A stretch of 64,000 nucleotides of DNA from Euglena gracilis. Its lineage: Eukaryota. The stretch is from NCBI GenBank assembly GCA_039621445.1, contig CP154954.1:24006954-24070953 (forward strand), given 5' to 3'. The position numbers were made by a program, and so were the translations under genes. The notes beneath the pieces were generated by a model, which saw only the letters and a list, made by a program, of their open reading frames with translations, ran no database searches and was not told the origin of the DNA. Shown here piece after piece: positions 15,057-58,094 of the stretch; positions within the stretch are counted from its first letter, which is position 1, and the number at the start of each line of letters is the position of its first letter.

Positions 15057-15068
15057 CTCCCCTTCCTC
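15057..15068 (-). promoter_or_regulatory. Polypurine tract of element A
   Basis: Minus strand GAGGAAGGGGAG directly before the 3' LTR. Confidence 0.85.
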
Positions 15069-21830: not shown

Positions 21831-21964
21831 TGGTAGCACCCCCCACGGTGCTCCATCCGGCCGACCGTGAACGGCCGGTTCGGGAGGTGCTGCCACGGCC
21901 GCACCACCACCTTCCGCACCTTCTTCGCCTCCTCCGCCGCCGCCACTTCTTCCCGTGCCTTCTC

Positions 21965-26989: not shown

Positions 26990-26993
26990 GGAT

Positions 26994-30504: not shown

Positions 30505-31950
30505 CTGTGGATCACCCCAGGAGCCCCCCAGCTACTCCACAGGGCACTCCCAGAAGCCCTCCCCCTTCATAGCACGTGAATATTACCGCGGCCTGCGCCT
30601 GGAGTTTCTCCAGCAGTGGGTAATACTTCCACTGGATTCCCAGTGCTCTGATGGAATACATGTGCGTGAAGATTTCCTTCAGCTGTGCTACGAACGTTTC
30701 GTCGTCGGCACATGTATTCATACAGTCGATGTAGGTCAGACCGTTTCGGTCGGTAAAAATCCCAAAGTTCTGGCAGGGGTATCCCAACCAGAACCACAGC
30801 TCCCAGAAACCGGACATCTGGTCCAGGACGACTTCATCCGAATGAGGGCATCCCTTAAACGCATGGAGTTCGGCACAGTAGAAAAATCGTTTGCAGTGAT
30901 TGTACATACGATTATGCACCACTTCGAGCACCGCTTCCGGTGGTCGGTGGATCACGTTGCCTGCACGTGTAAACTTATGGAGATCCTCGTCGATGTTCGA
31001 CCAGATCTCCTCAAGGTAATCGAATACCACGGCAACGTCATAGTCCTTTGTTTTCGAAGGTTCGGCGGCTTTTCCGCCTTTTGCTGCTGGGGGTCCGGCA
31101 GATTTTCCGCCTTTGCCTGGAGCTGGCCATGCGGCTTTTCCGCCTTTGCCAGGTGGGGCTTTGCCACCTTTCTCATGGCCTTTTCCTTTCCCCTTACCCT
31201 TCCTTGCCTTTTCATTTACTCTTACCCTTCGAGTTAGACAGCCATTCGAATGTCGCCCAGTAATCCCAGTATTCTGTGTCTTCCGCAGTATATACCGGGT
31301 AAGTCACGGATTCCGTGCTGGGCGTCCGAGCAAATTCCTGTTCAGCGTCACCACCATTCAAGTAAACCGGTGCGACCGGGGGTGGTCGGGTTTCCCGACG
31401 TACCCGTTCTGCCGTCACATCTGGCGCGGGCGAAGTTTCCTCGTCAGCGTCGACGTACATCGCCGTGGGCGGATTTTCCGACCTAGGCGAGCGGCGCTGT
31501 GGCTGCGGCGTCAGATTTTCCGGGCCGCGGTCACGCTTGCCGGCGGCAGAGCTTGTGGGTCGTGCCGATGGCGCTTCCGCCACAGCAACACCCCGCTGTC
31601 CCGCATGTTGACTGGATCGTGAGGGAGCTGGGACTCCGGTGAGAGCCGTCACAGCAGCATCATACTGCTGGCGCTCTTCCATCGTCATTTCCGCCCGGGC
31701 AGGGTATCCCTGTCCGGCGGAAACAGGGGGCTGACGTGCGATTTGTCTCTGGATCGTCACAGCATATTCACACTGTTGACGCTCCTCCTCGGTATCGAAC
31801 GGCCGACCAGTCCACGGGTTGACGGGTTTATCCCGTACCTGTGGGACCGGCGCCGTACGAGGCGCTGCCGCGGCTTCCCGCGGACGAGCGCTCCGGGCAC
31901 TGTCAGACGTCGAGGGAGGGTTTCCTTCCGCGTGGCGTCTTGGCAGAGGG
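30505..31950 (-). pseudogene. Remnant of a family-B ORF3 homolog
   Basis: GFWELWFWLGYPCQNFGIFTD and KRDRGPENLTPQP match GFWELWFWLGYPCQNWGLFSD and KRDRTTENLTPQP in ORF 44597..47764. Confidence 0.85.
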
Positions 31951-31968
31951 TCAGGTATGGTATGGTGG

Positions 31969-34644
31969 GGTCGCTGAGCTCTTATCTCTTTAGAGTAAGA
32001 GCGAAGCTTACCACCGGGGCCGGAGGGGGTCGGGCCCCCCCCCCCCCCCCCGGCCGCGCCCCCCCGCGCCCCCCCCCCCCGCCCCCCCCTGAGTAGGTCC
32101 GGGCCCCCGAGGATTATCGATGTGATTGGATTTCGTGGCCCCCAAAGTGAATGGCCTCTAGGTTAGGGGACGACCCCTAGTTTCTCCAGAGCCCTTAGGT
32201 TACCCGCAGCTCCCCGCCAGTCCGGAGATATGGCCCGAGCAAAAAAGTTGTCTGCCGTTTTTTTTTCTGGGGATATTTCAGGGTCATTTTGGGGTCAAAA
32301 AATCGAAAAATTTAAAAATATCTCGAAAACGCCGCGGAGTTGCAAAAAAGTAAAGAGGACGTCATTCCTCAACTTTGGGAGCCCAATCGATCGCTATGCG
32401 CGGTTTGGGACGACTCCCCGCCTAGCCCGAGAATACGGCTGTTTTGGGGTTTTGGGCCAGTTTTGCCAGTTTCGGCCATTTTGGGCCCGTTCGGGGCCCG
32501 AAACCGTAATTTGCCCGTATCTCGTGCTAGACGGGAGTTGGAACCCAAACCAGGGGGTCAATCATTAGGTTTAGGGGGGGGGTTGACCGTTTTTTGGGGT
32601 TCCCGGGGTCTGGTTGTGCCATTTTGGGCCATTTTTGGGTATTCGGGGACCCCTGCGGGGGTTCGAGGGCCGTCGGGCTGGGGGTCCAAAAATCGAAAAA
32701 TTCAAAATATCTCGAAAACGCCGCGGAGTTGAGGAAAAGTGATGGCGACCTCATTTGACGACCTTGGAACGCCTGATCGATCCCTATGCGCGCTTTGGGC
32801 CAACTCCTCGCCTAGCCCGAGATACGGCCGTTTTGCGGCTTTTGGGCCAGTTTGGCCAGTTCTGGCTGTTTTGGGGCCCGAAACCGTAAATTGGCCGTAT
32901 CTCGGGCTACACGTGGAGTTGGGACCCAAATCAGGGGGTCAACCATTGGTTTAAGGGGAGGTTTTGACCGTATTTTGGGGTTCACGGGGCCTGGTTGTGC
33001 GATTTTGTGCCAGTTTTGAGCCACTTGGGCGATTTTGGGCCAGTTTTGGCTGTTCGGGGACCCCACCGGGCGGCGTGAGGGCGGCTGGGCGATGGGGGGT
33101 CGGGTGGCAGGTCGGGACCCAAAATTTTGAAAACATTTTTTTCGCTCAAAAATACTTTTTTTCACTTCAGAACATCAAAAAAGTGTTTTTGAGAGAGAAA
33201 AAATTTTCCGACCCGGACCCCCCCCCGTGGCTGCGGCCCACCCCACTGGCCGGTGGACTTAGCCATTTTTGGGTCAAAAAGTCAAAAAAATTCAAATTTT
33301 TTTTTGCCCAAAACCATGTTTTTTGACCTCCCGGACCCGAAAAAAGTGTTCTCGACCCAAAAATGAACGTTTTTCGACCCGCCAGCGCCCCGTTTTGGGC
33401 CGCCAACCCATTGACTTTGGGTCAAAACCGGGCCAAAAAAGTCGAAAAAAATCGAAACATTTTTTTTGCCTGAAACGACGTTTTTTGGCCTCCCGGACCC
33501 AGAAAAACTGTTTTTGAGCCGAAAACGAGCGTTTTTAGACCATCAGTGCCCCATTTTGGTACGCCAACCCATTGACTTTCGGTCAAAACCCGGTCAAAAA
33601 AGTCGAAAAAAAATTGAAAAATTTTTTTTGCCCGAAACGCTGTTTTTTGGGCCTCCAGAACCCAGAAAACCCGTTTTTTTAGCCAAAAATGAGCGATTTT
33701 TGACCCCTTGGCCCCTCGTTTCGGGCCCAAAACCCTTGCATTTCAGTCCAAAGAGCTCCACGGAGTGACTGGGCCGCGCCGCCTTGCCGCTGGCCGTGCC
33801 GGGCCGCCGGGCTGCCGGGCCGCCGGCCGGGCCGGGCCGCCAGCCGGGCCGGGCCGGGCTGGGCCGCCGGGCCGCCGAGCCGGGCCGGGCCGGGTCGCCG
33901 AGCCGCGGTGGTCTTCCAAAGAGCTCAGCTCTACGTCACACCCTGGTCGCTGAGCTCTTATCTCTTTAGAGTAAGAGCGAAGCTTACCACCGGGGCCGGA
34001 GACCCCCCCCGACACCCCCCCCCCCCCCACCCCCACCCCTCCCCTGAGTAGGCTCGGGCACCCCAGGATTATCGATGTGACCTGATTTCCGGACCCGAGA
34101 AGTTAATAGCCTATGGGTTAGGAGAGGATCCCTAGTTTCTCCAGAGCCCTCAATTTGCCCGCAACTCCCCGCCAGTCCGGAGATATGGCTTGAGCAAAAA
34201 AGTTGTCTACCGTTTTTTTCCAAAGAAATTTTGTTGGACCGGCAAAAGGGCCATTTTTGGGGGTCAAAAAATGGAAAAAATTAAAATATGTCGAAAACGC
34301 TGGGGAGTTGAGAAAAAGTAAAGAGTACCTCATTCCACAACTTTGGGAGGCGGACGGACGGACGGACGGACGGCTGGTGAAAAAAGCGAAGGTCCGGACG
34401 GACGGCTGACCTTGTGGGCTTGGTCCAGACGGCTGAAGAAGATGCACTTGGTCCAGCTAGCCGGCTGGCCGGCTGGCCGGCTGGCCGGCTGGCCGGCTAG
34501 CCGGGGTCTTTGGAAGCGCAGGCTAAGGGCAAGAAAGGTCGCGTAGATCTCCAAACGGAAGTAACGGTCCAGATCTCCACACAACATGTCAGATCTTTTG
34601 TACGATGTCCGCTGAGCTGCCCCGTACTGCAAGGTTCGTATCAG
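31969..34644. mobile_element. Tandem non-autonomous repeat units with a conserved hairpin junction (possibly Helentron-associated, DINE-1/HINE-like)
   Basis: Motif GTCGCTGAGCTCTTATCTCTTTAGAGTAAGAGCGAAGCTTACCACCGGGGCCGGAG at 31970 and 33946; A/T-tract sub-repeats; (GGAC)n at ~34352; no coding signal. Class is an inference. Confidence 0.5.
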
Positions 34645-34969
34645 TGTGTACCAGGCGTATGCTTCTGTCCCCTTCCGTTGAGGAAGTTAGGATCGAAGCA
34701 GATCCTATTAGGATCTCCTAATGGGTGCCCCTTCTCTCTCCACAGGTGGTATTCTTTTATATTCTTCTTTATACCTTTTCCTTCCTTTCCCTCGGACCGG
34801 ACTTGGTTATCCAGTCCGTCCTCCCTGCATTGCCCTGTGCTTTGCTTCTTGGGAAGTGGGAAAAGGGATTTTCTGTTACTCTGATTTTCAGTTCCCAAGT
34901 AGGTGCGCCAAGGCGAAAGCGAAGGCTTTTGGGAATTGGGAAAGGGGAATTGGGAATCAGACGTACACT
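34645..34969 (+). repeat. 5' LTR of B1
   Basis: Direct repeat of 61034-61357; TGTGTAC...GTACACT termini. Confidence 0.93.
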
Positions 34970-35114
34970 TGGTAGCAGATTGGTTACGATCCTATACATA
35001 CTTCACAGAAAGAAAGGCTACCAGGTATTACACTTGGTAGCAGATTAGGTCACGATCCTACACATACAGCCCGTTTAGAAAGAAACGCTACCAGGTATTA
35101 CACTTGGTAGCAGA
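34970..35114 (+). promoter_or_regulatory. Three tandem initiator-tRNA primer binding sites
   Basis: TACACT-TGGTAGCAGA with the PBS at 34970, 35035 and 35105. Confidence 0.85.
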
Positions 35115-35319
35115 TTGGTTCGATCCTACGCTGACTGGCAGCGGAGGGCCCCTGCACCGTTTATTACACGGTCGCAGCGTCAGCTCCCGGCTTCTAGTCA
35201 ACGTCTAAGCAGACGAGCAGGCTCCGGAAGGCTCTGTACGGTATTACCTGTTACAACCCTTCTGGTGCCAGCACAACTGCTTAGTTTTGTGGGTTTTTGC
35301 TGTTTTTGTCATCAGAAAG

Positions 35320-38300
35320 ATGCAAAGCACAGGCCCCAACCATCAATTCAATTATGCCTTATTACAGGCATCATTGCAAGACATTGACCAAGAAAATGGG
35401 GATTGGAAGCTTTTATGTGAAAGTGCTTCCAGTTCCCACGCCGATGAGGCACAATTGGTTCAATTGTCACAATTGCAACACTTGTCATCATTGACAGTGG
35501 TCGGCGATGAGCCCTCCACATCATTGGCTTCAGAGGCTAATGCGGCCTCTTCCGCACTCACCTTGCCACAACGGGGGTATTCGCCTCTGTCTGCGGCAAT
35601 GGTGCAGCTGCGCACACCGGAGAGACCCGTGGTGATTCCGCCACTGGGCTTCTCTGGTGATGGTGGGCTGGAAACCCCGTGTTTCTTTCAACCACCACCC
35701 GTTCTTCCACCGGCAAGCCCTTACAGAGCTTTGCCACCACCACCCGATCTTGGGTGCTATCCCGCACTACCTTGGCAACCGGAGACTCGCCTAGTGGTAC
35801 CAGAATTCTCTGGTACGTCCCAACCCATGGATGGCTATGGGAAGAGCACTGGGGAGCTCCTCACTGCTGAGGATGTACAGGATATGGTTGCTCGGCTTCC
35901 AGGGGATCACCCCCTTGTGAGGCAGTTCAACCATGTGCAACAATGCGTTGCAGATTGTGCAACCGCACTCAACAAAGTGCTCCAGTTTGATGAGGACAAC
36001 CAAAAACATGTCTTCACCAAGCTGGAATACTGCTGGAATTACTTGCAGGAAGTTGGCAAATATTGCCAGAGGAATTTCGAAAGTGCGGGTATTGACCTTG
36101 CAAACTTTCGGGAAACCTTTGACAAAATGTGCCAACAACTCCCGCAAAACTTCCGGCAAATTGGTGAATGCATGCATGAAGCGGAAACCCGGAATGACTC
36201 CAAGTTTCTGCACTTGCATGACTCACTACAATATTTATCGGGACAAATGGAGTCCTTTTTATCCGCGTTGTCGCATTTGCAACAACAGTTGCATGCACGA
36301 GATTCCTCGTCTGCAACATCCAGCAGTGGTGGACTTGTGTCTATGGACCATTTCACCACATTGTCCGCAACTTTCCATGAATCGCAACACCGCATTATGC
36401 AGTTGTGCGATGAAACGGAAAAGTTTCGGCAATTTCAGTCACAAGCCAACGAGAATTTTGCTCCCCACACGTATCTGCGGCAGTTGGAGGAGCGACTTTC
36501 CTGTTTGGAGCAGAAAACCTGGTATTGTGACGCACATCGGGTTGGTTTATCCAATCTGAGCGCGAAAGTCGCGGAAGTAGCACAACGGCAGGATTCCCTG
36601 CAGTTGCAGTTGCAATCCGACATTGGCGGGATTAACTCGGCCATTGCGGGGTTGCAACAAAGCTATTCCGCACCTTCCCACCGAGTTCCGGACATTAGCG
36701 GTATTCAGACTGCTATTGGGGAACTCCAGACCCGGTATGCATCGGTGTCTACCAAAGTAACGGAAATGCAGTCTCTACCTGCAGGTTCCAGGACCCAGAT
36801 TACCGAGAACCCTGATTTCAAGGCATTTTATGACAACATGCTCACTAACAATCGGGAAACCTTGCAAGATTTCTGCAACAGCCTATTACGGCTTGAGGAA
36901 TCGGTGAATCGGAATGCCCGATCCACGCAAGGTGAGATTACCAGGTTGGATGAGCGAATTTCCGCGTTGTTGGATAAGCCACAATTCGGAAATTTGCCCG
37001 TGGGTACCACAACCGCGTTGTCGGATAACCCTGCACCGGTTGCACCCACCCCCACACCAACCAAGACATCACCTTTGCAGATTCTCTCAAATGCTGTAAA
37101 AGCATTAATGGGACAACTCCAATTATTGCGTAAGTCTCACGGGAAACTTGTCCAAGATGTTACCGGAATTTCCGAAAGGATTCCACACTTGGATGACTTT
37201 TCCCGTTACCGCAAGCGTATTCGCGCTTTGGAGGATGAAGTTGACCGTATTTGCGGCCAACTCCAACTCGTTGAGCATTTGGAGCAAAGTGTGCATGACG
37301 TGACTGTGGGTTTGGATAATGTGTCCAACCAACAGCGGGTTTCACACCGCAATTCGGCAGTATGCATTGCCGAAGATGCGCCAAATGTTCCAGAGTCGCG
37401 TTTCCATAACCCGGCTCTGGGTGCACATGCACCACCACCACCCGTGTCCCGAGTGTCACAATCCGCGATTCCGCGAACTGTGCCACCATTGGCCTTTTCC
37501 AAAACCCAAACCCAGTTTTCGGATGAATTTCCCATTACGGGAACCGAATTTTCGGAAAACACGGCGATTCCGCCAAGTCTCCACCAAGAAATCCATCATT
37601 CCATGCTTGTGCGTGGAATGAGCCAAACCCGTACACCGGGAGTGGGTCACATGTTGCATGCGTGACATACCCCCACACCGGAGAGTCCCCCTATTACGGG
37701 TGACCAACAGGGTTTGCGACAAGATTTCCGGTACCAGGATTCACCTTCACCAGAAATCTCGCGATTCCGACAAGAATCCGGAAAGGATACGCTTGGTGCT
37801 CGAGCGTACCCAGGCCCAAAACCGCGGAATACCACCGAGGGTCATTGGGTTTCTCAGAAAGACTTCAAGGGCACCATCGCAATCGCGAATAAGGTGAAAC
37901 CCCAATGGGACGGTGATCCAACCACATGGAGACAGTTTTTCCGGGACTGGGAGTATTACTGGGCATTGAAAGGGCCGACCCAGGACACAAACCCGGAGGT
38001 GATCAAGAAGGAATTCATCGATTGTCTCCCTAGGGATGAGAAGGAGCGCGCGCGACAACTTGTCATTCGCTACCGCGGTTCCTTCGATGACCTGGTAGAG
38101 CAATACGCTTCCACCAGTTCAAGTTTGGTCGCTAGGATTACCCTGGAGACCAAGTGGCGGCAATGCGCCCCACCCGATCGGAAGTGGAAGTCCATTGACC
38201 TTTGGTATGCCAAATGGTTAGGACTTGCCGCTGAAGTGGATGAACTCAGTGAAAAGCAAATGCGCGAACAGTTCGATGCTGTTCTCATGCATTTCACGCC

Positions 38301-39325
38301 TAGCCTCATCAAGGATATCCACCGTGAGGAGTTGGCGAGTCACCCATTGACTCTTGACCAGCGCTGGAACTACGTTTCCAAGCAATTGAAGCTATCACAG
38401 CTTCTTGGTCAGATTCAATCCGCGTATAACGCACACCCAACCGCTGGATTACCGGCTGGTTCGGTGAACGCATTGCAAAAATCACCGGTTTCACCCACTT
38501 CACCAACCACGGGATCGAAAACGCGATACCCGCGTTCTTCGGACCAAGCCACGAATAAAGTGTGCTTTTTGTGCAACAAATCGGGACATATGTCTCGGGA
38601 ATGTCCTAATCCTGAAGTGCGTAAGCGTATTCAGAGTCCGCGAGGCTCGACCTCATCACGGGGTTCGGGTTCCTCCGCGTTTTCACGCCAATCGGGCAAT
38701 TCACGGTCATCGGGTCCCCGTTCCGGTGGTATTAGCCCCCGGATCCCGTTCCGCGATGAGCGGAAACACGGTACCCCTCGGGGTAGGTCACCCGGTGCCC
38801 CGGCCAAGAAGCGTGATTCTCATCGCGAGACATCGCGATCGCGTTCGCGAAGCGGATCATCCTCTTCGCGATCCTCATCGGGAAAACCCCGATACACCGG
38901 TCATGGTCGACGGGATATCCGGTCACCACGACGGTTTGACGGGAAATCGGGAAACCGATCCCCCCGTTACCCAGAATCGCGACACAAATCTCGGTGTTCG
39001 CTTTGTGGATCACCACTCATCCAAATGTCCGCGTTCTCGTTCTCCCCTCCCTGGCCAACGTCATCGCGGTATGAATCGCGGTGACAAGGGTCACTCCTCC
39101 AACCGCCATAAAGTCGGTTTCAAGATATCTTGTTTGGAGGATGACACCCCGGCTTCGGGCAGGGAGGGGGATGAGACCACGGATACCGACTTCGATGAGG
39201 CCCGCATGGCGGGGCGCACGTGGAAATCTGTTTATACCTCTAAAAGGCCCATAGCCGGCTATTCGGCCGGTTCGGTACCTGGAGTAGGGGAGATCGAGGT
39301 CCGAGGGCACGGACCTCTGGGCTGA
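35320..39325 (+). pseudogene. gag: gag of B1 (long coiled coil, capsid-like region, two CCHC knuckles, SR-rich tail)
   Basis: KPQWDGDPTTWRQF; CFLCNKSGHMSREC; in-frame TGA at 37663-37665 (CGA in sister copy); 8-bp deletion in the second knuckle relative to the sister copy. Confidence 0.88.
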
Positions 39326-39445
39326 TGAACAGATGGAGGTAGGACCTGATCAACCCTGCCCCCCCTGCCCATCTGCCTTTGTGGTCGGTACGCGGAAAAT
39401 TTTCGGGTCCCCCTCCCCCCTCTCCAACTTTCCGCTCGTAATGTT

Positions 39446-42400
39446 GTGAAAAGTAGGAAAGGGTTCATGGGAAAGCTGGCAAGAAATATATTTTCGCCAG
39501 ACCCTTCACTTTGCTTACCACCCATGGAACTTTTGGTCCAAGCGGAAATCAGAATCCAAAACTTTTGTGCAAAAGTCAAAATTCTCATTGACACTGGTTG
39601 TCGCATTGCACTACTTTTTGGTTCGGTTGATACCAACCCCCCTCTTGGTGAAAGCCAAGAAGCCGATCAAAATTACGACGGCAGACAACACCCCCATGTG
39701 CAGTGGTGACTTGGGATGCTTTTTGGACATTGTCCTACCCCTCATCCCCAAGCACCACTCACACCCCCCCCAACCGCAAAATTTTCCGGATACCTGGGGA
39801 TACGAATCTGGAATCCATGGTTCTGACGTAATTCTGGGATACCCCTTTTTACGTCAGCACCGGCTGGTAGTGGATTGCCACTCCCACGGTTTGCGCACAT
39901 CACCATTCTCTTCATTGTCCCCCAAACCTTCATCACAGGTGGCGTCAACCGCGACGACCACCAATTTTTCCACACCGTTTTCAAAAACTTTTACCCCGTT
40001 ACCAACCACACCAACCAACGTTTTCCACACCGGGTGTACCGAGAAAGTTCACCCCCTGCCCATTGACACACCAACTTCCGTTCCCCATGAGGCAGGGCAA
40101 GCGAGTAGCGGTACCCCCCTCGTTCCACTGGGTTACAAGACGAAAGCCCAAAGGCCTGAAGTTATAACGGTGTCGAGTAGTCGCCCAGCTGCACTAATAC
40201 CCCGTTTTCCACCAGATGTATCGCTTTCAGATACATCTGTACACCCCCCAGCAGCTACAAAAGCGCATCCCAACTTTTACACACACCCTCACCAGACCAA
40301 CATGCGCGACCAGGACACTTCCTTCCAATGTGTGCACTGTAGGAGAATTTCCGCCCAGCCAGATTTCGATTGTGGATGTTTAGTCCAAACACCAACACTA
40401 ATCCCGATTTCGTGTCACCATACACTTGGTTGCGGTTCGCAATGCACGACCGTACATCAAGTGCTCCAACAACGACGTATTGCCTTGTTGTTTGGGACCG
40501 CGAAATCCGTGTCACACACCTCCCCCACCTCCATCTGGCATGATATGGACTGGGTATGCACCCATCCAACCCATCAACCCTTGGGAATGCCCCTAGGGAG
40601 TGTGGATGACACACCCTTGACCTATGTTTGCGGATCCCTAAATTGCGTCACCAGTCTTCAACCCGCGAACCAGGTCAATAGATACGCGATGCGCGTATGG
40701 AACGCATTTAATTTTGGCCAATACCGTATTTTGGAGGAATGGTTCTCCAAAATCGCGGCTTTGGCTGATTCATTCGATTTGTCGTTGGAAATTGATGTGT
40801 TTTCATCAAAAGCGCATGCGCGCTTGTCGCGATATTGGTCGCGACATTCCAACGCGTTTCTGAAATTTTGGGGTGATACGGTGCTCTGGATGCACCCTCC
40901 CCCAAAACTTATCCCGGATGTGGTGGAGAAAATCCTCCGCGATGAAGCGCGAGGAGCTCTCCTCATACCCGTCAATCCGAATGCGGATTGGTTTCACCAA
41001 CTATTCGATGTGTGTTTTCATTGGTGGGATTTACCCGCTGATGTACCACTATTTGAGGATTTTTGTGGTATATTATTACCACCTGTAAAAGAAATCATTT
41101 TTCGCGTTTGTTTCTTCGACGCATTCGGAATATCCGATGTGCGTGTGCCAAGATGCCTTGGTACCAATGGGGATGCCACACCCTCAACGCAGATTTCTGC
41201 GGTCATTGAGAGTGCGGACCAACACCCCAAGTCTGCTGACTATTGTTCGCAAATTACTCGCGAATTTCATGGTGTTCTGGATAACCCAGTATACGCCTGC
41301 GACATCGACCCCGCGAGTCGCGGTCCATTCGGTGTTTGCAAAATCGAGCTCAAGGATGGCGCTAAATCCATGCACCGGAAATTCTTCCTTTGTTCGGGTG
41401 AACGCGAACAGGCTCTCAACGAGATGATTGAGAAGCTCATCCAGCGGAAGTGGATTATCCCTTCCAAGAGCGAATGGACATCACAAGCTTTTGTGGTGCC
41501 CAAACCCGCTGACCAGTCTGGTCAGAAGAAGTGGAGACTAGTGCTGGATTACCGGTACCTGAACTCCCAAACGAAGGATGACCCCTTCCCGTTACCGCTG
41601 ATCGAGGATTTGATCACCAGACAATCGGATAACCGGTTGTAGTCAATCTTTGATCTGGAAGACGGTTTCCATCAGATGCATTTGCAACCTGATTCGCAAC
41701 CGTGTACGGCATTCGTGACATCCAAAGGTGAGTAACAATGGACGGTACTCCCCATGGGTGTTAAGAATGGCCCAGCCATGTTTCAACGCATGATCCAGTG
41801 GGTTTTGCGCGATTTACCGTTTGCTCTGGTGTACATCGATGATGTACTGGTGGGAACCCAACCGCCATCCGCGAAATCGGGCGAGGACATCCTCGACCCG
41901 CATTATCACGATGTGCGCGCGGCGTTATCCGCGTTCCAAAAGCAACGTGCTTTTTGTGAAGGGTTCCAAAATGCACCTGTTTCGCAAACTTATTAAGTTT
42001 TTGCGGGCATATCCTGAGCAACGAGCAGCGTAAAGCCGCACCCAGTAAGATGGAGGCCATTAAGAAATGTACTCCTGAGGTCATTAAGACCTTAACGCAT
42101 TTAAAGGGATTTTTGGGATTAGCCCAATATTACGCGATTTACATGAAAGATTTCGCGAAAATCGCGGTACCCCTAACCCGACAACTCAAAAATCGGACAC
42201 CCGATAACGCAAAAGTCATTTGGGATGACCAAATGCGCGAGGCCTTGAATAAAATCAAGGACTTGCTGCTCGAGAACGTGGTTCTCGATATCGCGGATCC
42301 ATATAAACCGTATGTCCTGGAGGTCGACAGCAGCGATTACGCTGTTGGCGGAGTTCTTAGCCAGCATAATGCGGCGAATGAACTCCGACCTGTGGCTTTC

Positions 42401-44399
42401 TTCAGCAGGAAGCTACAGGACGAAAACGGGAAAGGACAGGTTAAATGGAGCATTCGCGAAAAGGAGACATGTGCCATTGTGCTTTTTCTCCAGAAATTCC
42501 GCAGCTGGATAGCCAGCAGCTTGGTCCAGATACTCGTATTGACGGATCATGAGAGCCTTCAACACTGGTATACCGAGGACCTAAACAAGGCCATGTCATC
42601 AGTGGGCAGAAGATGCCGATGGCATGAGTTCTTGAGCCAGTTTAACCTGGTGGTTATCTATACCCCAGGTCACACGCAAGAAGTAGCGGATCCTCTCAGC
42701 CGAGCCCCCTGGTATTATCCTGGGAACGCGGATGAGGGTGATGCGACTTTTCATGGCAGCCATGAGGCTGACCAGTTCGCACGTCGATCCGACGCTGCGG
42801 ACAACATGCTCGATTCACTACCCGTTTCCCGGGGGTATCGCAGCATCGCCATTTCACCATTGCGTGGAAGGCGCCGGCGTGGACGCACTGCCGGACCCCG
42901 TCGCAGTACGCGTACGGAAACTCCTACCCCCCTATTTTTCCGCGAATGGGATTATTCGCGTGACCCTATATATAGTACCATTGTGAACAGACTTCGTAAT
43001 GGTGAATCCATGAGAATTCCTCTCTATCACCATTGCGGCTTATTTTCCTTAATGATTCTGGTTATAAATATTGTATACCCCAAGACCTGGTTGATGATGT
43101 GATTTTGAGCTATCACAACCATGGTCACCCTGGGGCCCCCAAACTTCTTTCACTGGTGGGTCGCAGATATTGCACAACCCTGAGTGAAAAAGAATTATTT
43201 TCGCGCTGTTTGCGAATTTCGCAAAGGTGCCAAATTTGTCAGGCTGTAAAACCGCGCAGAGGTACCCCCCCTGGTACGATGGACTTTTTCACCGTACCAC
43301 CAGACATCTTTACGTCCCTCTGCATGGATTTTCTCGAACTTGAACCTTGCAAAGGATCAGATGACAAAATTTACGATTACGTTTTTGTTGTCGTCTGTCG
43401 GCTGAGTGAGTACATAGTAGCCATTCCATGCCGGAAAGCAGGGTTGACAGCCCAAATTTTGGCATCCATATTCCTGGAGAAATGTATCTGCTTAATGGGT
43501 TTACCGAACGAAATCGTGAGTGATCAAGATCACTTGATCTCTTCGCGGTTCTTCACAACTTTGTGCGGTTTACTCGGCATTGAGCAGCATTTTTCCATTA
43601 TATACCGCCCGAAAGGCAATGGTAGAGCCGAGGCAGCCGTGAAATCCGTTGTCAATATGTTTCGCCTTTCACTGCTGACTCGGGTAAGAATTGGTTATCC
43701 GTTCTTCATTGGTGTTTATTTTACATCAATACCTTGCCATGGTTGGTATTACCACACTCACCGTACAAAATTGTTTTCGGACGAGACCCTCCGGCCATAG
43801 GGGATATCCCCTCGGAGAGATCCGCCCGAAGTAGCGTCAGCTGTGAAGCGTGGTTTGCAGAAGTGGAATCACTCCGCTCTGCAGTCCAATCACGTATCAC
43901 AGAAAATCATTCCAACAAACGGAAATCGTTTTTACAAAACATCAACACACCTGTGTATAGTCCAGGTGACCGCGTGTGGGTACGGAATAACCGCACCCGC
44001 ATGCAATCTTCCAAGCTAGATCCTCTTTGGCTCGGCCCATGCGAAATCTTGGAGAGGTTAGGTAGTAGCGGGCGATATAAAGTTGCCGTGCCCAACGGGA
44101 TTGAGGACGTCCATATGGACGACTTCAAACCGTACCTAAGCCCCCCAGACGGAAAAGCTATCCCCTGCCTGTATTTCCAGCCCCGTTCCAGATTACCTGA
44201 AACGGACGACTTTGTGGTCGATAAGATAATAGACCACAAGGTCGACAGGGGTGTGCACTACTGGAAAGTTCGCTGGAAAGGGTATGGGCCAGAGGAGGAC
44301 ACTTGGGAACCAGCATCCAGTTTTGTTGGATATATCCAGCAGGATTGGAAGCTGTGGAACAAGCGCAACAACATAGACATAAACATAAACACTTTCTGA
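39446..44399 (+). pseudogene. pol: pol of B1: protease, MTase-like domain, RT, RNase H, integrase, chromodomain; multiple stops and frameshifts
   Basis: ILIDTGC, VILGYPFL, KWRLVLDY, PMGVKNGP, YIDD, VDSSDYAVGGVL, H-x3-H...CxxC, CMDF / VSDQD / [20 protein letters not shown]...[15 protein letters not shown]. Confidence 0.95.
40719..41125 (+). CDS. Phage-Dam/DIRS-like N6-adenine DNA methyltransferase domain inside B1 Pol
   Basis: IDVFSS (DxFAS-like SAM motif), RYWS, NAFxxxW, LWMHPPP (NPPF-like), LIPDVVEKI, LLIPxxxxxxWF, in the order typical of this family. Confidence 0.75.
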
Positions 44400-44596
44400 A
44401 ACTATTTCGTTTTGGAGAATGTATGTGTTTTTTGTGAATGTTTCGCGTTTATGACCCCCCCCTGCACTTCCTTATTTCTGTATCTTTCTCGCAGAGTTTT
44501 TGATTAAGATAGAAGCCTTGCTTTTTCAGTGCACCAGCACTCAAAGCGACTGACAACAAGGTTACCCTTAGTTGTCGTCGTCGTTCGGGTAGCATC

Positions 44597-47500
44597 ATGC
44601 TGCCGGGGCGCGGACCTGGACCAGGTCCACCATGGCCACAGCCTTCTGGCGCGCCATACCCCCAGTACCCTCAGTATGCTGAGGCCCCGATTCCAGGTGC
44701 CCCACATGCTGAGAGGGTTTCAGCCCCGGTATTCGCCACGGCTACTAGCAGCCGGTCCGCATATGCGGTGCCAGATGCACCTGCCGTCCAGCAGCCGGCA
44801 CCTCAGCCACCAGCGCAGCGCAGATCGCGCCTGCCCCCGTATGCAGGAGAGATGATCTTCCGCACTACGGAGACGTTGGAGCGGGCGATGCGTATGTGCG
44901 CACACCCCCCAACGGAGCCCTTTATGCAAGCCCTTTGGGATGCATACTGTGCTCAGTTGTTGGTGGTAGCCAACACCCCGGTGGCTCAGTGGTGTCCCTG
45001 TGGTCAAGCCCTGATGACGGGGAGACGGTATTTCTCGTCGGCATCCGATTCCGGATTCGAGCCTGGCGAGACAATGATGGACCTGGGCGTGTATGTGCCG
45101 CCCATGCTGCAAACGCAGACGCCGGTGGGATCCCACACCGTGCATATGTGTGAGCACACGCCCCCACCGGTAGGTGAACCTGTGCATGTCCCACCTGGGA
45201 TGACGAGAATTTTTGCTCGCCCGCCCTCGCCGCAGCGAATGCCGCCGCGCGAGCCGCCAGCGGAGCAATTTGTCTCGCAGTACGCGACGCACGCGGATTA
45301 CCCGCGCGGCGCACGCGTGCTCCCAGCTGGACAGTCGGACGTGCCCCCTGAGGCATACGTCCAACACATGTTCATGCACTGGATGCCACAGGCATTACCG
45401 GTTGCCCCTGTCCCTGGCGTTGAGCCACGGCGACAGGTGGAGCCCATAGTGGTGGAGGATGAACCTCCCCACCGTGTGCCAGCCCGACCGCCCAGTGCAG
45501 CCCCTGTCCAGACTGGGGATATTCCCCGTCGGCAGGAAACTCCCTACTATTACATGGCACCTCCGGGAACCGAGCAGGATGAGCTTGCTCGGCACTTCCT
45601 GCAGGAGCCAGCACTCGCGTCTGAAGAGCACCGGTCGAGGTATTACGCCTCTCTGGCTGCCCTTCAGGGCCGTGGATACACCCCCTACCATCCGTACCAG
45701 CCGCAGCTGCGGGTGGCAACCCCGGTATTACCCGGTGAGCCCCCGGCAGGTGTGGCAGTATTACCTGCCACCCTGAAGCGCGACAGGACTACGGAGAACC
45801 TTACCCCACAGCCCAGGCGACCCAGCCCACGGGACGCGGAAGGCGGTGTGGCAATGCAGGTGGAAGCCAGCCAGGATACCCCGACTGGACGACCACCGGC
45901 AGAGGCACAGGTGGCGATGAGCCGTCCTGTTGCCGCTATGCCACCGCCGATCCCTCCGGTATGGAAGGAGCCGCGACCCCCTGCGTCGAAGCCAAGCCCA
46001 CGCCAGACTCCTAGCCAGCGCCCAGCCACGCCATCACCACGACGTGCAGCGGAGCGGCCAGGTCCCTCCCAGGAGATGGAATTGGAAGGAACCGAACCGA
46101 CTCCGGCGGCACCGAGCGCCCGACCCTCTGGTATTCGCCAGACGGGAAAGGACACAGGCAAGGCCGAGGGCAAAGGCAAGGGAGAAGGCAAAGGCGTGGC
46201 CGTCAAAGGGAAGGGTGAGGGTAAAGGTAAGGGAACAGCACGTGAGGAGGAAGAGGAACCAGCTGAAGTCCTCTCGGACTTTGAGCATATGCTCAGGTTC
46301 AAGGAGGAGCTGGAGGACGAAGGCTGGCGAATGCAGCATGATTACCATGTTGCAGGAAACCGCCCCGTCACCCCTCCACAAGCAGTCATCGATGTGGTAT
46401 TACGCCACACCGAGAACAGAGTCAGACTGTTCCATTACGGAATAGATCTGTACGCCATCGAAGGTGAAGGTGGCAGACCCTTGCTGGATGCCCAGCCTGG
46501 TTTCTGGGAGCTCTGGTTTTGGCTGGGATACCCCTGCCAGAACTGGGGTCTCTTCAGCGACTCCACTGGTCGCAGTTACCTGCACCAGTTGGGATTTCGG
46601 GACCAGCGTGTGTTGGCCCGAAGGCTGAAGGCAATCTTCGACTGTATTCATACAGTCGGACCCCTCGGTGTGCAGTGGGAAATCTACCCACTACACCCTG
46701 ACATCGAACGCCTGATCGAGGTGTTGTGGTGCAACAACCTCCAGGTGTGGCTGGTGAGCCATTACGGCTCCACCTTCCGCGTTAAGCGTGTTTCCCTGGC
46801 TTACCCGCAGAGGTATGACCTCTGCTGTAAGTACTGCCGGCAGGAATTTCCTGTCGAGTTCTGGGGATTCGGCGTGCGCGGAAGTCCTCCACCGCCTCGT
46901 GATAACCCGGGCGTGGAGATGGGACGCCGCATGCTTATGCATGTGTGCCGCGACGCCCCGGATGTCCAGGGCAAAAGTCGCCGCGTCCACAAGCAGCGTA
47001 TTTTTATGCTGCAGCAGTTCTGGTGGCGAGCCTGGACCACCTATGTCATGGAGGTGTATATACATCTCCGTGACCCCCAGGACGATAGGCCTGGTATGGA
47101 AAGCCTGCCACCGGATTACGGTGACGCCATCGAGGGTCCTCGTCGTCGGATTCTCGGCCACCTGCGCCCCAACTGGCACCTGGCTGATATCAGCCTGCAG
47201 GAACATTTGCGGCGACAGTTTGGCGGTACCCTCGACCGGGAGGTATTCCTTCCGCTGATGTGTCACCCGGAGGCCATCCTCGAACAGCGTATGCCGATTC
47301 TGGCATGCGTTCAGGAGTTCGAGGAGGGCTTTTTCGAGGTCTGGGAAGACACGCGTTACCGCGGCTTCCTGGGCCCAAACAGGCCTGCCAACGCCTGGGT
47401 GCAGCCATCATGGCCGCCACCCTGGCCCAACAGCGCCAGCAGCAGTACGCTGGCCTTTTACAGGCTGGCGGATGCCCAGGGATGCCGATGGCACCCCGAC

Positions 47501-49353
47501 GATCCTCGTTCGCCCGAGGATCTGCGCGCCTTCATCGCCCCGGAGGATGAACCTCTGGCGCGAAGGAGACGGGAGGCGTCAGTCGCTTCCACCACCGCGA
47601 TTCCGCGGCGGGAGGAACGCGACCGCAGCCCCTCCGTCACCATCCTGGAGGCAGCGCCGCCGTCTCCGACAGGAACGGCTGTATCCTTCGTCTCTGCCCC
47701 GCGAGCGACAGGGGAACGATCGGTTTCTACGGCCCCGCGGCGGCTCCTGTCTGTCCACCGGTAGGTGGAGACCAGGAACTCCTTCAGGAGGAAGGCGAGA
47801 ACGTGGAGGATATCCTCTTCGCTGCTCTTCCTGCTCCGGCACAGCCTAGTCCGGACGAAGCACCCGCAGGGGATATACCTGTGGCTGCTACGCCTGTTCC
47901 AACGGCTGAGCCTCCAGCCGTGACTGGTATGGTCGTCGAGGATATCCTCGAAGAACCTGCCAGTCCCACAGCACGCACCTCGTTAGGAGGCCGTGTGCTC
48001 GGCGCCGTAGTCACCGGCATTACTGCCGTGGCTGCTGCACTAACGCCACGAGGTGGAGGCGTAGCATCAAGCTCCGCCGCCGAGGTCGTGGAGACACCAG
48101 ATGTCGGTGTCCCCACACCCCCATCTCCGGCAGCAGTGCAACCACCTTCAGGGGATGAACCCCAGCCGACAGAGCCATCTGTCGCACCGGCTACCGCGGA
48201 GGATCAACCTCCTGTAGCACCTGCGCCAGCGGTTGTGGAGGATCAACCTCCTAGACCGGATGTCGAAATGGAAGTGGAGGAGATACCCCCACGACCACCG
48301 ACACCGCGCAGGGTCCCTGCCGTCCCGAGGACAATGTCAGAGTTTCTGGGAGTGCCAGCACCTGTGGAAGCACCGATTCCGGTGACGACCACAGTGCCAC
48401 GCCTCGTCGGACAGGATGAACCTGCTCGGCGACGGCCGGCTGAACAACCCCGGGAACGAGTGCCGACCCCTCGGAGCGTCATGCGTGACCCAGCGGTCAG
48501 TATGCCCGCTTCGCCCAGACGGCAAGCGTCTACTCCGGCACCATCGGCTCCTGATACCAGGAGTAAGCTGCAGGCGTCGCCTCCTGATTCCGGGAGTGCG
48601 AAGCCGAAAGGAGGCAAACTGGGTGCTGCACCCTGTAAGCCCCCTGCCAAAGGCGGTGATGGGAAACCACCACCGAAAGGTGGCGCTGGAGGTCAGACTG
48701 GCGGACAGCCGAAAGGCCCTACGACAATGCACGACTATTCGGCCGTTGCATCGTCCGGGTACGGCCAGAGCAAACCGAAAGGTAAGGCTCGTGGCCGACA
48801 GGCCCAATCTTCCGCCGGATCGACGGACGAGGAGCAGGATGAACCTGCTTCACCTCCTGTGTCTGCGGATGCCCATCTATGGACTCAGGATATCCTGACC
48901 AGACTAGGCACCGTGGAAGAGAGGACGAAGAAACTGGCTGCTATTAGGCACTAAAAAGGGTCACTGAATCGATGGATTCAGCCCCTCTTCGTCCGGAGAG
49001 AACCTTTCCACTATGTCCCGGAACATACCTGGACATTCTGGAATAGGCGCTCACCCAGAGTACTGGCACAGTACTTTGGCGAGGACTGCGTGTTGGATTT
49101 CCAGCACGGCACGTCCTTTGCCTGGACGTGCACCGTGTGCCACCATGTGCGGCACAGCCAACCGCTTGTGCATGTGTGTAAGCGGCAGGTGCAACCCTCG
49201 TGGTTCCATCACAGGGCATATGTGCCGAACTGTGTAGCGCTCGTATGTGGCGAGTGCCTGAACGCCTGGAAGCACAGCTTGAACTACTCATACAGTGAGA
49301 ATGCTCACGACAGGGATATCCCTGCCTTGTGCATCAACTGTATAGGGGCCAAG
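44597..49353 (+). pseudogene. ORF3 of B1: very long Pro-rich protein of unknown function with a Trp-rich block and a C-terminal Cys cluster
   Basis: ORF 44597..47764 (1055 aa) continues after a frameshift into 47803..48954, then through TAA 48952-48954 into LNRWIQPLF...CTVC...CGEC...CINC. Cut by an LTR at 49354. Homologs at 30505-31950, 50660-53267 and 54440-55590. Confidence 0.8.
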
Positions 49354-52300
49354 AGTGTACGTCCAAGGACTTCCCTTTGACCCCTTTTGTCCCGGAAAAG
49401 CCTGTTTTGCTTTCTCCTGGTGCGCACCTACTTAGGTGAATAAAAATCCTTGGAGTAACAAAGCCCTTTTCCCCAATTCCCCTATGCTAAGGCAGAGCAC
49501 AAGGCAAGTCGCTGTGTAAGGATTTTCCTTCACAGTCGTGTTCAGTCCTTTCAGAGGTTTATCCTCTTACTTCAAAACAGTCAAAATGTGAAGAATAGAA
49601 TAAGGAATACCACCTGTGGGGGAAGGAGAGAAAAGTGCTGACGTGTCCAGGGGCAGATCCCGGAAGGGTCTGCCACGATCCTACCAGCTGTGGTTTTCCA
49701 CAGTGGTGCGACCGTCACAGAACCCACTCTGCAGATATCCTACAGAGCTGGGACGTGCCTGGTACACATCCCCCTCCCAGGGCTACGCCCGATTTCCTTC
49801 ATGGACCAGGGATTCCCAGGTCCAGTCAGGATATCTGACGCTTCCCCGTTGAGGTTCACTACTACTCCATTCGGTGTCTCTCCTTTCCGCACAGTGGCAT
49901 CCACCCAAATCCCAAAAACGCGCAAAAGGTTAGCCGCGTTTCGCGGTTACCTATTAGCCGTTTAGGCTAAGGTGGGGTGTGAAAAAGCACAATGTGGGAA
50001 AAGGCGGTTTCATGACAAAGTGTCACATCCACACACTTTGGGCGTGCCAAAGGCAGGCGGGGTTGGTCAAGCGTATTCGCTGAAAACCCGAGGGGAGAGG
50101 TGTGGAAGGGGGGGGGCAGGCTCCTATCCTGGTAATACCCGGATAGGGCTCCTAGGCGGTCATATCCGCACTAGGAAACAAAAGCCTACTTACAAAACCG
50201 ACTGCCGGCGACAGCTTTGCGGGGGTGGGGGGAAAGTAGGGAGGAGAGGGGGGCTGGCTTACGCCAGAACAGAATTTTTGCTGTCTGGCAGCCTTAAGGG
50301 GCCTTAGGGACGAAAAGTGACAACTTGGCCTATTATTATGGCGTGCGCGCTGTGTGCTGTGTGTCACTTAGCGGCTTGCCAGGTTTCCCGGCTGCCAAGG
50401 TCTTCACAGCAGCAGCTCCTTCACGACGCAATAAGAGGCGATTACCTCTTGCAGACAGTTCCGTCCGCATGGCCATTGGTATAGGGGTGGCGGGGGGGGT
50501 CATGGATGCTTCCATCCAGAGCGCAGAGTGTGTGTCACAGACCCAGGGTCATCCCAGGGCTGTTTAGCGATTTCCGCTACCAGTGTGTATATAGTATATG
50601 GGTGTCCAGGCTCCATGAAAGCACTGACCTTACATGGGCCTGGTAATGCCGTTTCGGCGTTACATCCGTTCCAGCCGCCAATAATCATGGCGGGAGTCCA
50701 AGGGATCTTCCACAAGGACCATCTGGAATTGTGGTGTTGGTGGCCTATCTACGAGCCAGGTTTCTGGCGATTCGTATTCGAAGTCAGGTACCACCCAGTC
50801 CCGAACCCATCCTTCGGGGACTGTCTGCTTGGTTGCGCTCGCTCTTTCCGCGAGGAACCACTGCAGCTTCTCCCAGAATTTCCTGGGCAGAGTGGCTGGC
50901 CAGATGAAGTAGTTCATCCGTGGATGATTGGCTGACACCTGCGGGGCATTCCCCGGGTGGAAGTCAATTGGCATGTCATACGCACATTCCGCGCCGACTG
51001 TATGGGGTCGTAATACGGCCCCAAGCCAGTCTTTCCAGGTCATCCCGTGGTTTTCGGGTGGCCATTGTGGCAGACACCAGCGACCGTTTCGGTCCTGGGT
51101 TTGGAACAGGCGAAAAAGTATCTTTTCCCTGTCCGCAGTCTCCCAGAGGTAAGGTAATCTTACCCCTGCTTCCTCAGCCGCGAGGCGTATCGCCCCACTG
51201 TCGACCTGCCAGCCACGGGCCATTCCCCTGTGGCGGTAGTTGTACAGCTTGAGGTTGGAGTACTTGAAAAAATCCTTGTACTTTTTGTGCAAGGTTGAGT
51301 ATTCCTCCAGTGGCTTCTGGGCACTTGGCACGATTGTGCGAACTGCGCCTTCCGCAGTTTGCCAGAAGGTACCTCGAAGGCAATTGACGCAGAGTATCGG
51401 TACATTCGTACCGTCTCTCTCTGTGTAGCTAAATTTGTGTTTGTGGGTCCAACTGTCCACGCACTTGGCGCATACCAAGGCGGCACAGTTGGGGATGTAT
51501 ACATCCTTGTGGAACGATTTCCGATCCACAGGGTTGCACACATGGACGAGGAGTAAATCCCAAGTCAGGTGCACTGTTATACATCTTGTGGCATACAGTG
51601 CAAAGCCACACAAAACGGTTTTCCGTTGTTTTGTAGATGAGGAATTCCTCACCGAAGTATTGGGCCAAAACACGGGGGGATCTGGAATTGTAATAATTCC
51701 AGGACACGTTCTGATCAAAGGACCATTTTCGGCCTTGACAGAACAGTGGCTCAATCCACCGGTTGAGGCATTGCTGTGTCCTCAGTTTGTGGTCGATCAT
51801 CATGTACCTGTTTTTCAGGTCATGAATCTCAGGATCATCCTGATTGACCGCGTTCCAGTCGATGACAACTTCGTCTTCCGAAGGTGTCTCGGCTGCTGAG
51901 GCGCGGGATTTTCCCTGCCCCTTTGACGAAGGTTTCGGCTGTGAGGTTTTCCCATAGCCGGATGGTGTGACGTGCGTGAATCCTTGTCCCGAGGTTGATC
52001 CCCGAGAAGAGGATGCAGCACTCTGGCCGCCAGCACCACTACCGCCTTTCGGTGGGGGCTGATCACCAGGTTTCGGTGTGGGCTTACAAGGTGCGGCGCC
52101 CGGCTTTGATTTTGCAGGGGCCTTCGGACTTCCGGTTTCCGGAGCATCCGAGGGCCGTCGATCGGCGTCGCGTTTGCTTGCCCAGGTGCGTGGTGACGCT
52201 TGGGACTGGGGTCTTCTCCCCGACACCGAGCGTCGTTGACCTTCAGCAGGGGTTTCCCCAGCTGAGGGTCGTCCTACGCGTTCCCTCGCGGCTTCCGTGG

Positions 52301-55610: not shown

Positions 55611-55659
55611 ATTCCCCATGTCCACCTTTCGGTGGATAAAGGGAATTTGAAAAATGTGG

Positions 55660-58078: not shown

Positions 58079-58094
58079 ATTTCCTGCGAAGATT

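Follow-up and report, generated by a model that had tools for sequence, protein, structure and literature searches.

A Dam-like methyltransferase domain with a histidine in motif IV precedes the reverse transcriptase of a chromovirus-type Ty3/Gypsy element in Euglena gracilis

Results

Features of the locus

We analysed a stretch of 64,000 nucleotides from Euglena gracilis (NCBI GenBank assembly GCA_039621445.1, contig CP154954.1, positions 24,006,954 to 24,070,953 of the forward strand), here called the window and numbered from its first letter, which holds on its forward (+) strand a copy of a Ty3/Gypsy retroelement with a Dam-like methyltransferase (MTase) domain inside its Pol region. The domain lies in a stop-free frame of 730 codons (39450-41642, +) that spans the C-terminus of the protease, the Dam-like domain and the N-terminus of the reverse transcriptase (RT). 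Within this frame the protease-like motif VILGYPFL (39828-39851) is found upstream of the domain and the RT motif FVVPKP (41490-41507) downstream, in a typical Ty3/Gypsy RT N-terminus whose end reads FVVPKP...WRLVLDYRYLN. The features of the element, including its open reading frames (ORFs), are the following.

35320-39084, +: ORF1, a long Gag-like frame with its ATG at 35320 (the ORFs 35209-37665 and 37666-39084 share this frame)
about 38560-38610, +: CCHC zinc knuckle in ORF1 (zf-CCHC, E 2.7e-5, in ORF 37666-39084)
39584-39601, +: protease-like LIDTGC (frame 39350-39709), motif only
39828-39851, +: protease-like VILGYPFL (frame 39450-41642), motif only
40329-40379, +: C-x2-C-x10-C-x-C in the protease-to-Dam linker, clade-specific (translation)
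40665-41144, +: Dam-like class-I MTase fold, 160 residues (Pfam, AlphaFold2, BFVD, PDB, homologues)
40791-40808, +: IDVFSS (translation)
40794-40808, +: DVFSS, a motif-I-like D-x-F-x-S after the first strand (translation)
40851-40871, +: NAFLKFW (translation)
40893-40904, +: motif IV, HPPP (CAC CCT CCC CCA), replacing N-P-P-aromatic (translation)
40983-40994, +: ADWF (translation)
41145-42200, +: RT, with its N-terminal region from about 41330 and YIDD at 41832-41843 (RVT_1, E 2.9e-9, on 41736-41996)
42221-42643, +: RNase H (RT_RNaseH_2, E 2.3e-25, and RT_RNaseH, E 9.1e-24, on ORF 41960-43102)
43075-43611, +: integrase H2C2 and DDE core rve (Integrase_H2C2, E 4.7e-7, and rve, E 2.8e-8, ORF 43006-43800)
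43965-44321, +: integrase C-terminal SH3 (Tf2-1-like) and chromodomain (Chromo, E 1.2e-10; SH3_Tf2-1, E 4e-6)
58094-60555, -: second partial copy of the element family, Gag part only (blastn, 89.9% identity to 36938-39399)

An earlier note on this DNA, made from the sequence alone, had placed a Dam-like motif series in frame within Pol at 40719-41125. The translation of window 40500-41642, which contains EIDVFSSKAHARLSRYWSRHSNAFLKFWGDTVLWMHPPPKLIPDVVEKILRDEARGALLIPVNPNADWFHQL, carries this series in frame on the + strand, and all the motifs quoted fall inside that span; the folded domain is somewhat larger, covering 40665-41144. When this slice was compared with Pfam, Dam (PF05869) was the sole family at E<=10 (E 1.7e-5, 25.0 bits). 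The match extends over profile positions 20-105 of 169 (window 40755-41000) and scores just below the gathering score of 28.1, which is exceeded by the relatives P0017 (31.6 bits) and P0032 (29.5 bits). With the 160 residues as query, phmmer searched 1.84 billion cluster representatives and found 432 proteins with E<=1e-3, among them 88 with E<=1e-10 and 8 with E<=1e-30. Of the 129 rows having a residue in the motif-I columns, 122 have the D, 125 the F and 77 the S. Together with the AlphaFold2 model described below, the Pfam and phmmer results put the Dam-like match of the window beyond chance, and we consider it highly probable that the segment is a Dam-like domain native to Gypsy Pol.

The host element

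The predicted Pol order is that of a chromovirus-type Ty3/Gypsy element, with RT, RNase H, DDE integrase and a C-terminal chromodomain, to which a CCHC Gag is added; the ORF encoding SH3 and Chromo (43626-44399) terminates with a TGA at 44397-44399. The earlier note had described the host as a DDE-integrase Gypsy element with Dam between protease and RT, and this description is borne out by the Pfam order downstream and by the zf-CCHC Gag upstream, the same order being kept in intact relatives. No Gag family of Pfam rose above threshold in ORF1, and Pfam found no protease family on either of the two protease frame pieces, so that the protease is defined at the level of motifs. Weak protease matches were obtained elsewhere, to Peptidase_A3B in the relative P0003 and to RVP in the equivalent region of family A, the other Gypsy family of the window (-, about 17091-23086). 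No flanking direct-repeat pair of the long terminal repeat (LTR) type was detected in 30000-50000, in a self-comparison of the whole window or between 33000-37700 and 44400-51000 (word size 9). An element of the DIRS1 type was also considered and is ruled out by rve and Integrase_H2C2, by the position of Dam ahead of RT and by the seven ORFs scanned around the element, in which no tyrosine recombinase (Phage_integrase) family appeared.

The copy in the window is degraded. ORF1 is interrupted by an in-frame TGA at 37663-37665, at a codon through which the second copy (59508-60170, -) reads, the protease is split across two frames by a frame break, and the RT carries two in-frame stops (41640-41642 and about 41733-41735), with a further frame break near 41945-41998. 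The closest long relative, P0155, aligns to the window in three successive frames, crossing the RT region in frames 3 and 2, and the differences listed for contigs matching 39450-44399 include single-base length changes near 39619-39624, 41945-41998, 43011 and 43673, the places where the frame changes. With these stops and frame breaks, the window copy is dead.

As for the remainder of the element, Gag looks like the C-terminal part of a frame of about 1,250 codons, whose N-terminal 780 residues gave only weak coiled-coil-type matches. The second copy (58094-60555, -) has no Dam, RT or integrase part. At its locus (54409-60555, -) the Gag part is followed by 25.7 copies of a 91-bp tandem repeat (2.3 kb, 55755-58089) and, beyond these, by a stretch 81% identical to 47754-48992, the order being the same in both copies. 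Either the element extends past the chromodomain, including a 1,083-codon Pro-rich frame without Pfam match (44513-47764), or the locus was duplicated and then rearranged.

Fold and structural relatives of the domain

Next, we examined the fold of the domain. AlphaFold2 run with a 48-row homologue alignment (A1) returned a model of alternating strands and helices with a mean pLDDT of 94.8 and a pTM of 0.88, while the prediction from the single sequence was unusable (pLDDT 35.2). Against BFVD, a database of predicted viral structures, the model gave 19 matches at E<=1e-3, of which the first 13 rows are all phage proteins, 8 of them named (DNA) N-6-adenine methyltransferase or methyltransferase. 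These phage matches range in E from 3.3e-9 to 2.4e-6, with TMq 0.61-0.72 and mostly an rmsd (root-mean-square deviation) of 2.2-3.5 A; the best phage Dam match has E 3.3e-9 and TMq 0.70, and giant-virus PCIF1-like proteins rank below the phage proteins, starting at E 3.8e-5.

Among solved structures, Foldseek found a single PDB match at E<=1e-3, human PCIF1/CAPAM (E 9.9e-4, TMq 0.61). A Foldseek-independent search of the PDB likewise ranked PCIF1 first (Z 10.6, rmsd 2.6 A over 127 residues), with PH1948 (Z 10.0), KsgA (Z 9.0), METTL5 and DIMT1 (both Z 8.9), M.BseCI and T4 Dam (both Z 8.1), and M.TaqI and E. coli Dam (both Z 7.6) following; the top 12 rows by Z are all methyltransferases or putative ones, mostly of the adenine-N6 type. 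Searching the PDB by sequence gave chance-level matches only with the domain sequence and none with a profile. These models indicate that the predicted domain is a Rossmann-type class-I MTase, nearest to the small phage Dam enzymes and, among solved structures, nearest to adenine-N6 enzymes. The earlier note had called the domain Dam-like, proposed structure prediction as a check and named the lack of a Rossmann-fold MTase match as a reason to drop the idea. Because the model matches class-I MTases, with phage DNA N6-adenine MTases as best matches and PCIF1-led adenine-N6 MTases in the PDB, the Dam-like assignment holds and that reason falls away.

The likeness to the small phage N6-adenine MTases (PF05869) consists in the best structural matches (TMq 0.64-0.72, rmsd 2.4-3.5 A, 129-156 columns) and in the only Pfam family found. 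The two differ in that identity is merely 14-20% and the Pfam score of the window lies under the gathering cut-off, in that motif IV of the window reads HPPP, and in that the window domain sits within a polyprotein whereas the phage one is a free enzyme.

Dam ahead of RT in the relatives

To place this arrangement among its relatives, we drew on proteins of independent sources. P0155 (JGI source), which has 59% identity with the window ORF across 591 residues, is an uninterrupted protein of 1,208 residues with Dam at 312-383, RVT_1 at 549-720, RNase H and Integrase_H2C2. When nine long phmmer matches were scanned with Pfam, Dam was present in all nine and RVT_1 lay downstream in four (P0005, P0020, P0032 and P0153); in P0020, P0032 and P0153 Dam and RVT_1 are followed by RNase H and integrase, and P0153 ends in Chromo. 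A wider survey, in which the matches were searched with pieces of P0155 (RT, RNase H, integrase) and of a DIRS-like locus (RT, RNase H, recombinase), put Dam N-terminal to RT in 16 of the 18 listed relatives with detectable RT or RNase H and gave the DIRS order in the other two (P0124 and P0147). The same Dam-RT order, with similar Dam-to-RT spacing, thus recurs in proteins of independent sources at 31-62% identity. At near length, a word-indexed protein search returned P0011 only, and as a region of the 730-residue ORF, P0155 only. The matches in the ESM Atlas were eukaryotic clusters only (Nematoda, Porifera and Mollusca).

The DIRS order was also met in metagenome contigs. A smaller alignment (A2) led there to four distant loci, and the three that were scanned (L001, L002 and L004) are all DIRS-like, reading RT - RNase H - Dam - tyrosine recombinase (28-32% identity, tblastn E 1e-11 to 7e-9); with P0155 as query the same contigs gave no relative. 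The earlier note had taken the domain for kin of the DIRS MTase domain, which follows RNase H, and this kinship is supported by L001, L002 and L004, which have that order and match the domain. The DIRS1 domain, reportedly associated with the work of Goodwin and Poulter and of Piednoel et al. 2011, is homologous to the window domain and has in common with it the series D-x-F-x-S, DAF...W, LW-x-N/H-P-P, K, P-x-W...WF. The DIRS domain, however, lies after RNase H and before the tyrosine recombinase, whereas the window domain lies before RT in an element with DDE integrase and chromodomain. Since the Dam-RT order recurs in relatives, the DIRS order differs and family A has no Dam segment, it is very unlikely that the segment stems from a nested DIRS element or from a chimeric assembly.

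A further mark of the near relatives lies in the linker between protease and Dam, where a C-x2-C...C-x-C motif is found about 100-160 residues upstream of Dam in 7 of the 35 relatives having at least 120 upstream residues (P0003, P0005, P0006, P0007, P0009, P0033 and P0155), all of the clade of the window. Pfam gave no family on the linker (40200-40700); the motif may be a zinc-binding module.

Motif IV and constraint on the domain

In amino-MTases the form of motif IV is (D/N/S)-P-P-(Y/F/W/H). In enzymes of the M.TaqI type the residue at its first position forms a hydrogen bond with the target amino group, and its aromatic residue makes a stacking contact with the flipped base; METTL14, with EPPL, is inactive. 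The H-P-P-P of the window does not fit the form of a competent amino-MTase. The earlier note had regarded activity as uncertain on account of HPPP, a caution that stands, and the His is a family trait and not a product of decay: motif IV reads HPPL in the intact ORF of P0155, HPPP in P0011 (70-75% identical to the window domain over about 80 residues) and P0042, and HPPF in P0008.

We then aligned the window with 153 phmmer matches. Of the 142 rows with a residue at the first position of motif IV, 94 carry N, 28 H, 12 C and 4 F, while Y, A, L and S occur once each; at the fourth position, 91 of 144 rows have F, Y or W. A tree was computed from 114 rows with the four motif columns masked (IQ-TREE quick, SH-aLRT support only), 40 rows being left out because they lacked the motif or had residues in fewer than 100 of the 141 columns. 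In this tree the window pairs with P0155 (support 99), P0002 joins them (98), and the three fall inside a clade of 15 rows (98) whose tetrads are NPPI (four), NPPV (three), NPPL, NPHY, YPPI, HPPF (two), HPMF, HPPL and HPPP. Nine rows of this clade thus begin the tetrad with N, five with H and one with Y, and N-P-P-F/Y/W occurs in none of the 15. Over the whole tree His requires at least 7 changes, 5 of them forced by starred branches, compared with a mean of 19.6 after shuffling, and none of 500 shuffles was as low.

The domain itself is well conserved. Its alignment to P0155 is gap-free with 112 of 145 residues identical (77%), next to 77% for RT/RNase H and 83% for integrase, while the linker ahead of Dam is gap-rich; judged by protein identity to this one relative, the Dam domain is conserved as tightly as RT. 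A 7-row alignment of close relatives has 28 invariant positions, which include P78 and P79 of motif IV and exclude its positions 77 and 80. Because the domain is conserved while the catalytic pair is non-canonical throughout the clade, the property under selection in the 15 rows seems, from these alignments, to be the fold and its surfaces and not the canonical catalytic pair.

Copy number and cover by RNA libraries

The stretch is widely represented in public data: 20 of the 24 runs listed, which come from 17 studies and include a leaf-litter metatranscriptome, contain it or part of it, and 14 of the 24 contain at least half of the sampled words. In one DNA run, 46,047 contigs match the 4,950 bases of 39450-44399 at 88% likeness or more. 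These contig counts, contig depth not being copy number, point to a family of very high copy number that has diversified. Contigs of three RNA-type libraries, two of them labelled RNA by guess, cover 30 of 30 bins, a cover by contigs that cannot prove transcription, and a metatranscriptome contig over 40437-41417 aligns without gaps and with 49 differences.

Discussion

The element among described Dam-bearing retroelements

Dam domains in Ty3/Gypsy elements, chromovirus-like ones included, are the subject of a preprint by Fernandez-Moreno et al. (bioRxiv 10.64898/2026.05.21.726589, 22 May 2026), the main text of which claims the first identification of such domains in non-DIRS LTR elements. 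It reports 10,030 eukaryotic DAM proteins; LTR elements, with and without chromodomain, contribute about half of the DAMs associated with transposable elements, and five DAM-LTR lineages are named (Chlorophyta chromovirus-like, Chloro-Ochrophyta, Ichthyosporea, Pyropia and Euglena). According to the same text, almost all DAMs have the catalytic triplet Asn-Pro-Pro, and eukaryotic DAMs expressed in dam-deficient E. coli brought no gain of N6-methyladenine (6mA). Our full-text literature search found no other paper on a Dam domain in Gypsy elements, and the figures or supplements of the preprint may already include the present family.

Dam, a Ty3/Gypsy-type RT and a non-DIRS integrase occur together in the window element, as they do in intact relatives. 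With a phage-Dam-like domain of the DIRS1 type built into a Ty3/Gypsy chromovirus Pol directly before RT, the element is a DAM-LTR in the sense of the preprint, a further example and not the first. The placement had been called unusual in the earlier note; a DDE Gypsy element with Dam ahead of RT is real, but its kind is already described in the preprint text and the remark is to that extent dated. The element resembles the DAM-chromovirus-like clade, as that text presents it, in having a Dam-type domain in a Ty3/Gypsy-like polyprotein, a DDE integrase, a C-terminal chromodomain, kinship with DIRS and unproven activity. It differs from the Asn-Pro-Pro DAMs reported there in that motif IV of this family is His-Pro-Pro with Pro or Leu as fourth residue, and in that N-P-P-aromatic is absent from the clade closest to it. 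The position of Dam between protease and RT and the upstream Cys motif are not given in the abstract, Results and Discussion of the preprint.

What the present family adds is therefore a His-type motif IV, found in the family and in about a fifth of the sampled relatives, a tetrad that is non-canonical across a clade despite strong conservation, a clade-specific C-x2-C...C-x-C upstream and a Dam-to-RT order common to most near relatives. On three of these marks of the clade, namely His or Asn with a non-aromatic fourth residue, the upstream Cys module and Dam fixed before RT, a bolder and quite tentative proposal can be built: the clade may be a DAM-LTR lineage outside the five described, in which an MTase fold has turned into a non-catalytic part of Pol that binds nucleic acid or recruits host machinery. 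With the C5-cytosine-MTase-like segment in the Pol region of family A, two Gypsy families of one genome would then be using different modules derived from DNA methylases.

A retained module or a working methylase

On the evidence of the alignments, we lean somewhat towards a domain that is retained as a non-canonical or non-catalytic module. Produced within the Pol polyprotein, the Dam domain would lie next to RT in the particle and would act as a non-canonical, probably non-catalytic module, which might bind nucleic acid or a cofactor or recruit host machinery. Such a role would parallel that of inactive MTase-fold partners. METTL14-type partners have likewise kept the fold with a motif IV that has neither the polar first nor the aromatic residue (EPPL; here HPPP or HPPL), though METTL14 belongs to another MTase family, MT-A70, and the analogy is functional only. 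The analysis shows what the fold is, where it sits in Pol, that the architecture is conserved, that His is a family trait and that the domain is under constraint; that catalysis is lost or changed, and that the domain binds anything, is inferred. An ordinary adenine-N6 DNA methylase appears less likely.

Several points weigh against this reading. The argument for impaired or altered catalysis comes from the roles of the first and aromatic residues of motif IV in other enzymes and from the METTL14 precedent, the comparison of Dam with RT conservation uses one relative, and the label of LTR element rests on the Gag and Pol architecture, as neither an LTR pair nor a Pfam protease was found. The preprint, moreover, argues that the catalytic pocket of DAMs is preserved; its text reports more 6mA on DAM-LTR copies than on other LTR elements in two ichthyosporeans and Euglena, and higher DAM-LTR expression in the two ichthyosporeans and not in Euglena. 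An active enzyme with an unusual motif would explain the conservation of both the domain and its His equally well.

The strongest alternative, which we hold to be possible with distinctly lower probability, is therefore a working adenine-N6 DNA methyltransferase in which His takes the place of Asn and which, made together with Pol, methylates either the cDNA or the RNA:DNA hybrid, or else the new provirus. A methylated insertion would then resemble 6mA-marked, transcriptionally permissive host chromatin, after the model of the preprint (10.64898/2026.05.21.726589). Phage DNA N6-adenine MTases as best fold matches, a domain as conserved as RT, the His kept in an intact ORF and the reported 6mA enrichment (three species) and higher expression (two) of DAM-LTR copies would all agree with such an enzyme, as would the RNA-type contigs over the Dam region and the metatranscriptome contig spanning 40437-41417, were it not that contig cover cannot prove transcription. 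Against an active methylase, HPPP and HPPL have neither the Asn/Asp/Ser nor the aromatic residue of the amino-MTase motif, none of the 15 rows of the clade has N-P-P-aromatic, and even canonical eukaryotic DAMs gave no 6mA in E. coli according to the preprint text.

Origin of the domain

A second alternative concerns the source of the domain, which would be the cellular PCIF1, a cap-adjacent m6Am RNA methyltransferase, and not phage Dam; the domain would then act on or bind the capped transcript of the element, or mimic PCIF1 at RNA polymerase II. PCIF1/CAPAM, a cap-specific adenosine N6-methyltransferase, is the best solved-structure match to the window domain in both PDB searches (with PH1948 within 1 of its Z), and Iyer, Zhang and Aravind 2015 place the DIRS1 MTase domains in the PCIF1 clade, judging them likely inactive, in the text available as PMC4738411, the only source through which our literature search met a link between PCIF1 and DIRS. 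In the Dam region of the DIRS-like locus L004 (2420-3721, +), Pfam PCIF1_WW (E 3e-6, 27.4 bits, cut-off 31.1) scores better than Dam (E 5.3e-4). We regard a PCIF1 origin as improbable, given that phage Dam proteins fit far better in BFVD (E 3.3e-9, TMq 0.70) than giant-virus PCIF1-like ones (best E 3.8e-5) and that the window domain, much smaller than PCIF1, is fitted better by phage Dam models. Of the features of the PCIF1 clade, neither PF12237 nor PCIF1_WW matched the window domain at E<=10, where Dam alone appears, and no WW family was found in the 730-residue ORF or in the other scanned ORFs of the element. No PF05869-type phage Dam is among the PDB matches returned; if the PDB has no structure of this type, the first rank of PCIF1 there may mirror no more than which structures have been solved. 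The phylogeny described in the preprint text favours a prokaryotic origin. The match of L004 to PCIF1_WW fits, as a separate observation, the closeness of DIRS MTase domains and PCIF1.

That the segment is foreign to Gypsy Pol, as a nested DIRS fragment, an assembly chimera or a functionless decaying relic, would suit a degraded copy without detected LTRs in a mosaic of repeats, but is hardly credible in view of the Dam-RT order and spacing of independent proteins, a frame unbroken from the protease C-terminus to RT, a Dam segment that stays gap-free and 77% identical to P0155 while the adjoining linker decays, and seven scanned ORFs free of tyrosine recombinase families.

How mobile elements adapt to the epigenomes of their hosts can be seen in retrotransposons that carry modules for chromatin or DNA modification. 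According to the preprint, a Dam domain enables Gypsy elements to exploit permissive chromatin marked by 6mA. The family described here, very abundant and with Dam as conserved as RT and a non-canonical catalytic tetrad, is a counter-example worth testing. If it is true that such domains do not methylate, the value of a DAM in retroelements, DIRS included, would lie in binding or recruitment and not in the deposition of 6mA.

Other features of the window

Family A, the chromovirus of the reverse strand (-, about 17091-23086), has RVP, RVT_1, RNase H, rve and Chromo. Upstream of its protease, at 22097-22594 (-) in ORF 20786-23086 (-), lie the C5-cytosine-MTase-like motifs DLFSGTGS ... SPPCTEYS ... 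ENP. Pfam DNA_methylase (PF00145) matches this segment with E 3e-4 and 20.8 bits (cut-off 22), over profile positions 4-78 only, and a sequence search of the PDB gave no useful match. It is thus possible that the DNA-methylase-like modules of the two Gypsy families in the window are of different kinds.

A family of long Pro-rich ORFs without Pfam match, pairwise 31-73% identical, occurs at 44513-47764 (+), 30515-32162 (-), 51432-53330 (-), 47551-48951 (+) and 54572-55348 (-). The window also holds a direct duplication of 5.7 kb with 98.5% identity (1-5749 and 10727-16466, +). It carries a pair of long ORFs, of about 714/817 and 601 codons, with no Pfam family in the scanned copy (10420-14642), and behind them lies GC-rich sequence of low complexity. 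An RT ORF at 26964-28484 (+; RVT_1, E 3.4e-12), with no Gypsy domains adjoining, may be a non-LTR element. A search with a dinoflagellate spliced-leader pattern, allowing up to 3 mismatches, gave 0 matches. Lastly, a tRNA-like sequence at 61490-61563 (+) is the sole Rfam match (tRNA, 35.1 bits); ARAGORN reports it as of undetermined type with a four-base anticodon, and it may be a degenerate tRNA or a piece resembling a short interspersed nuclear element (SINE).

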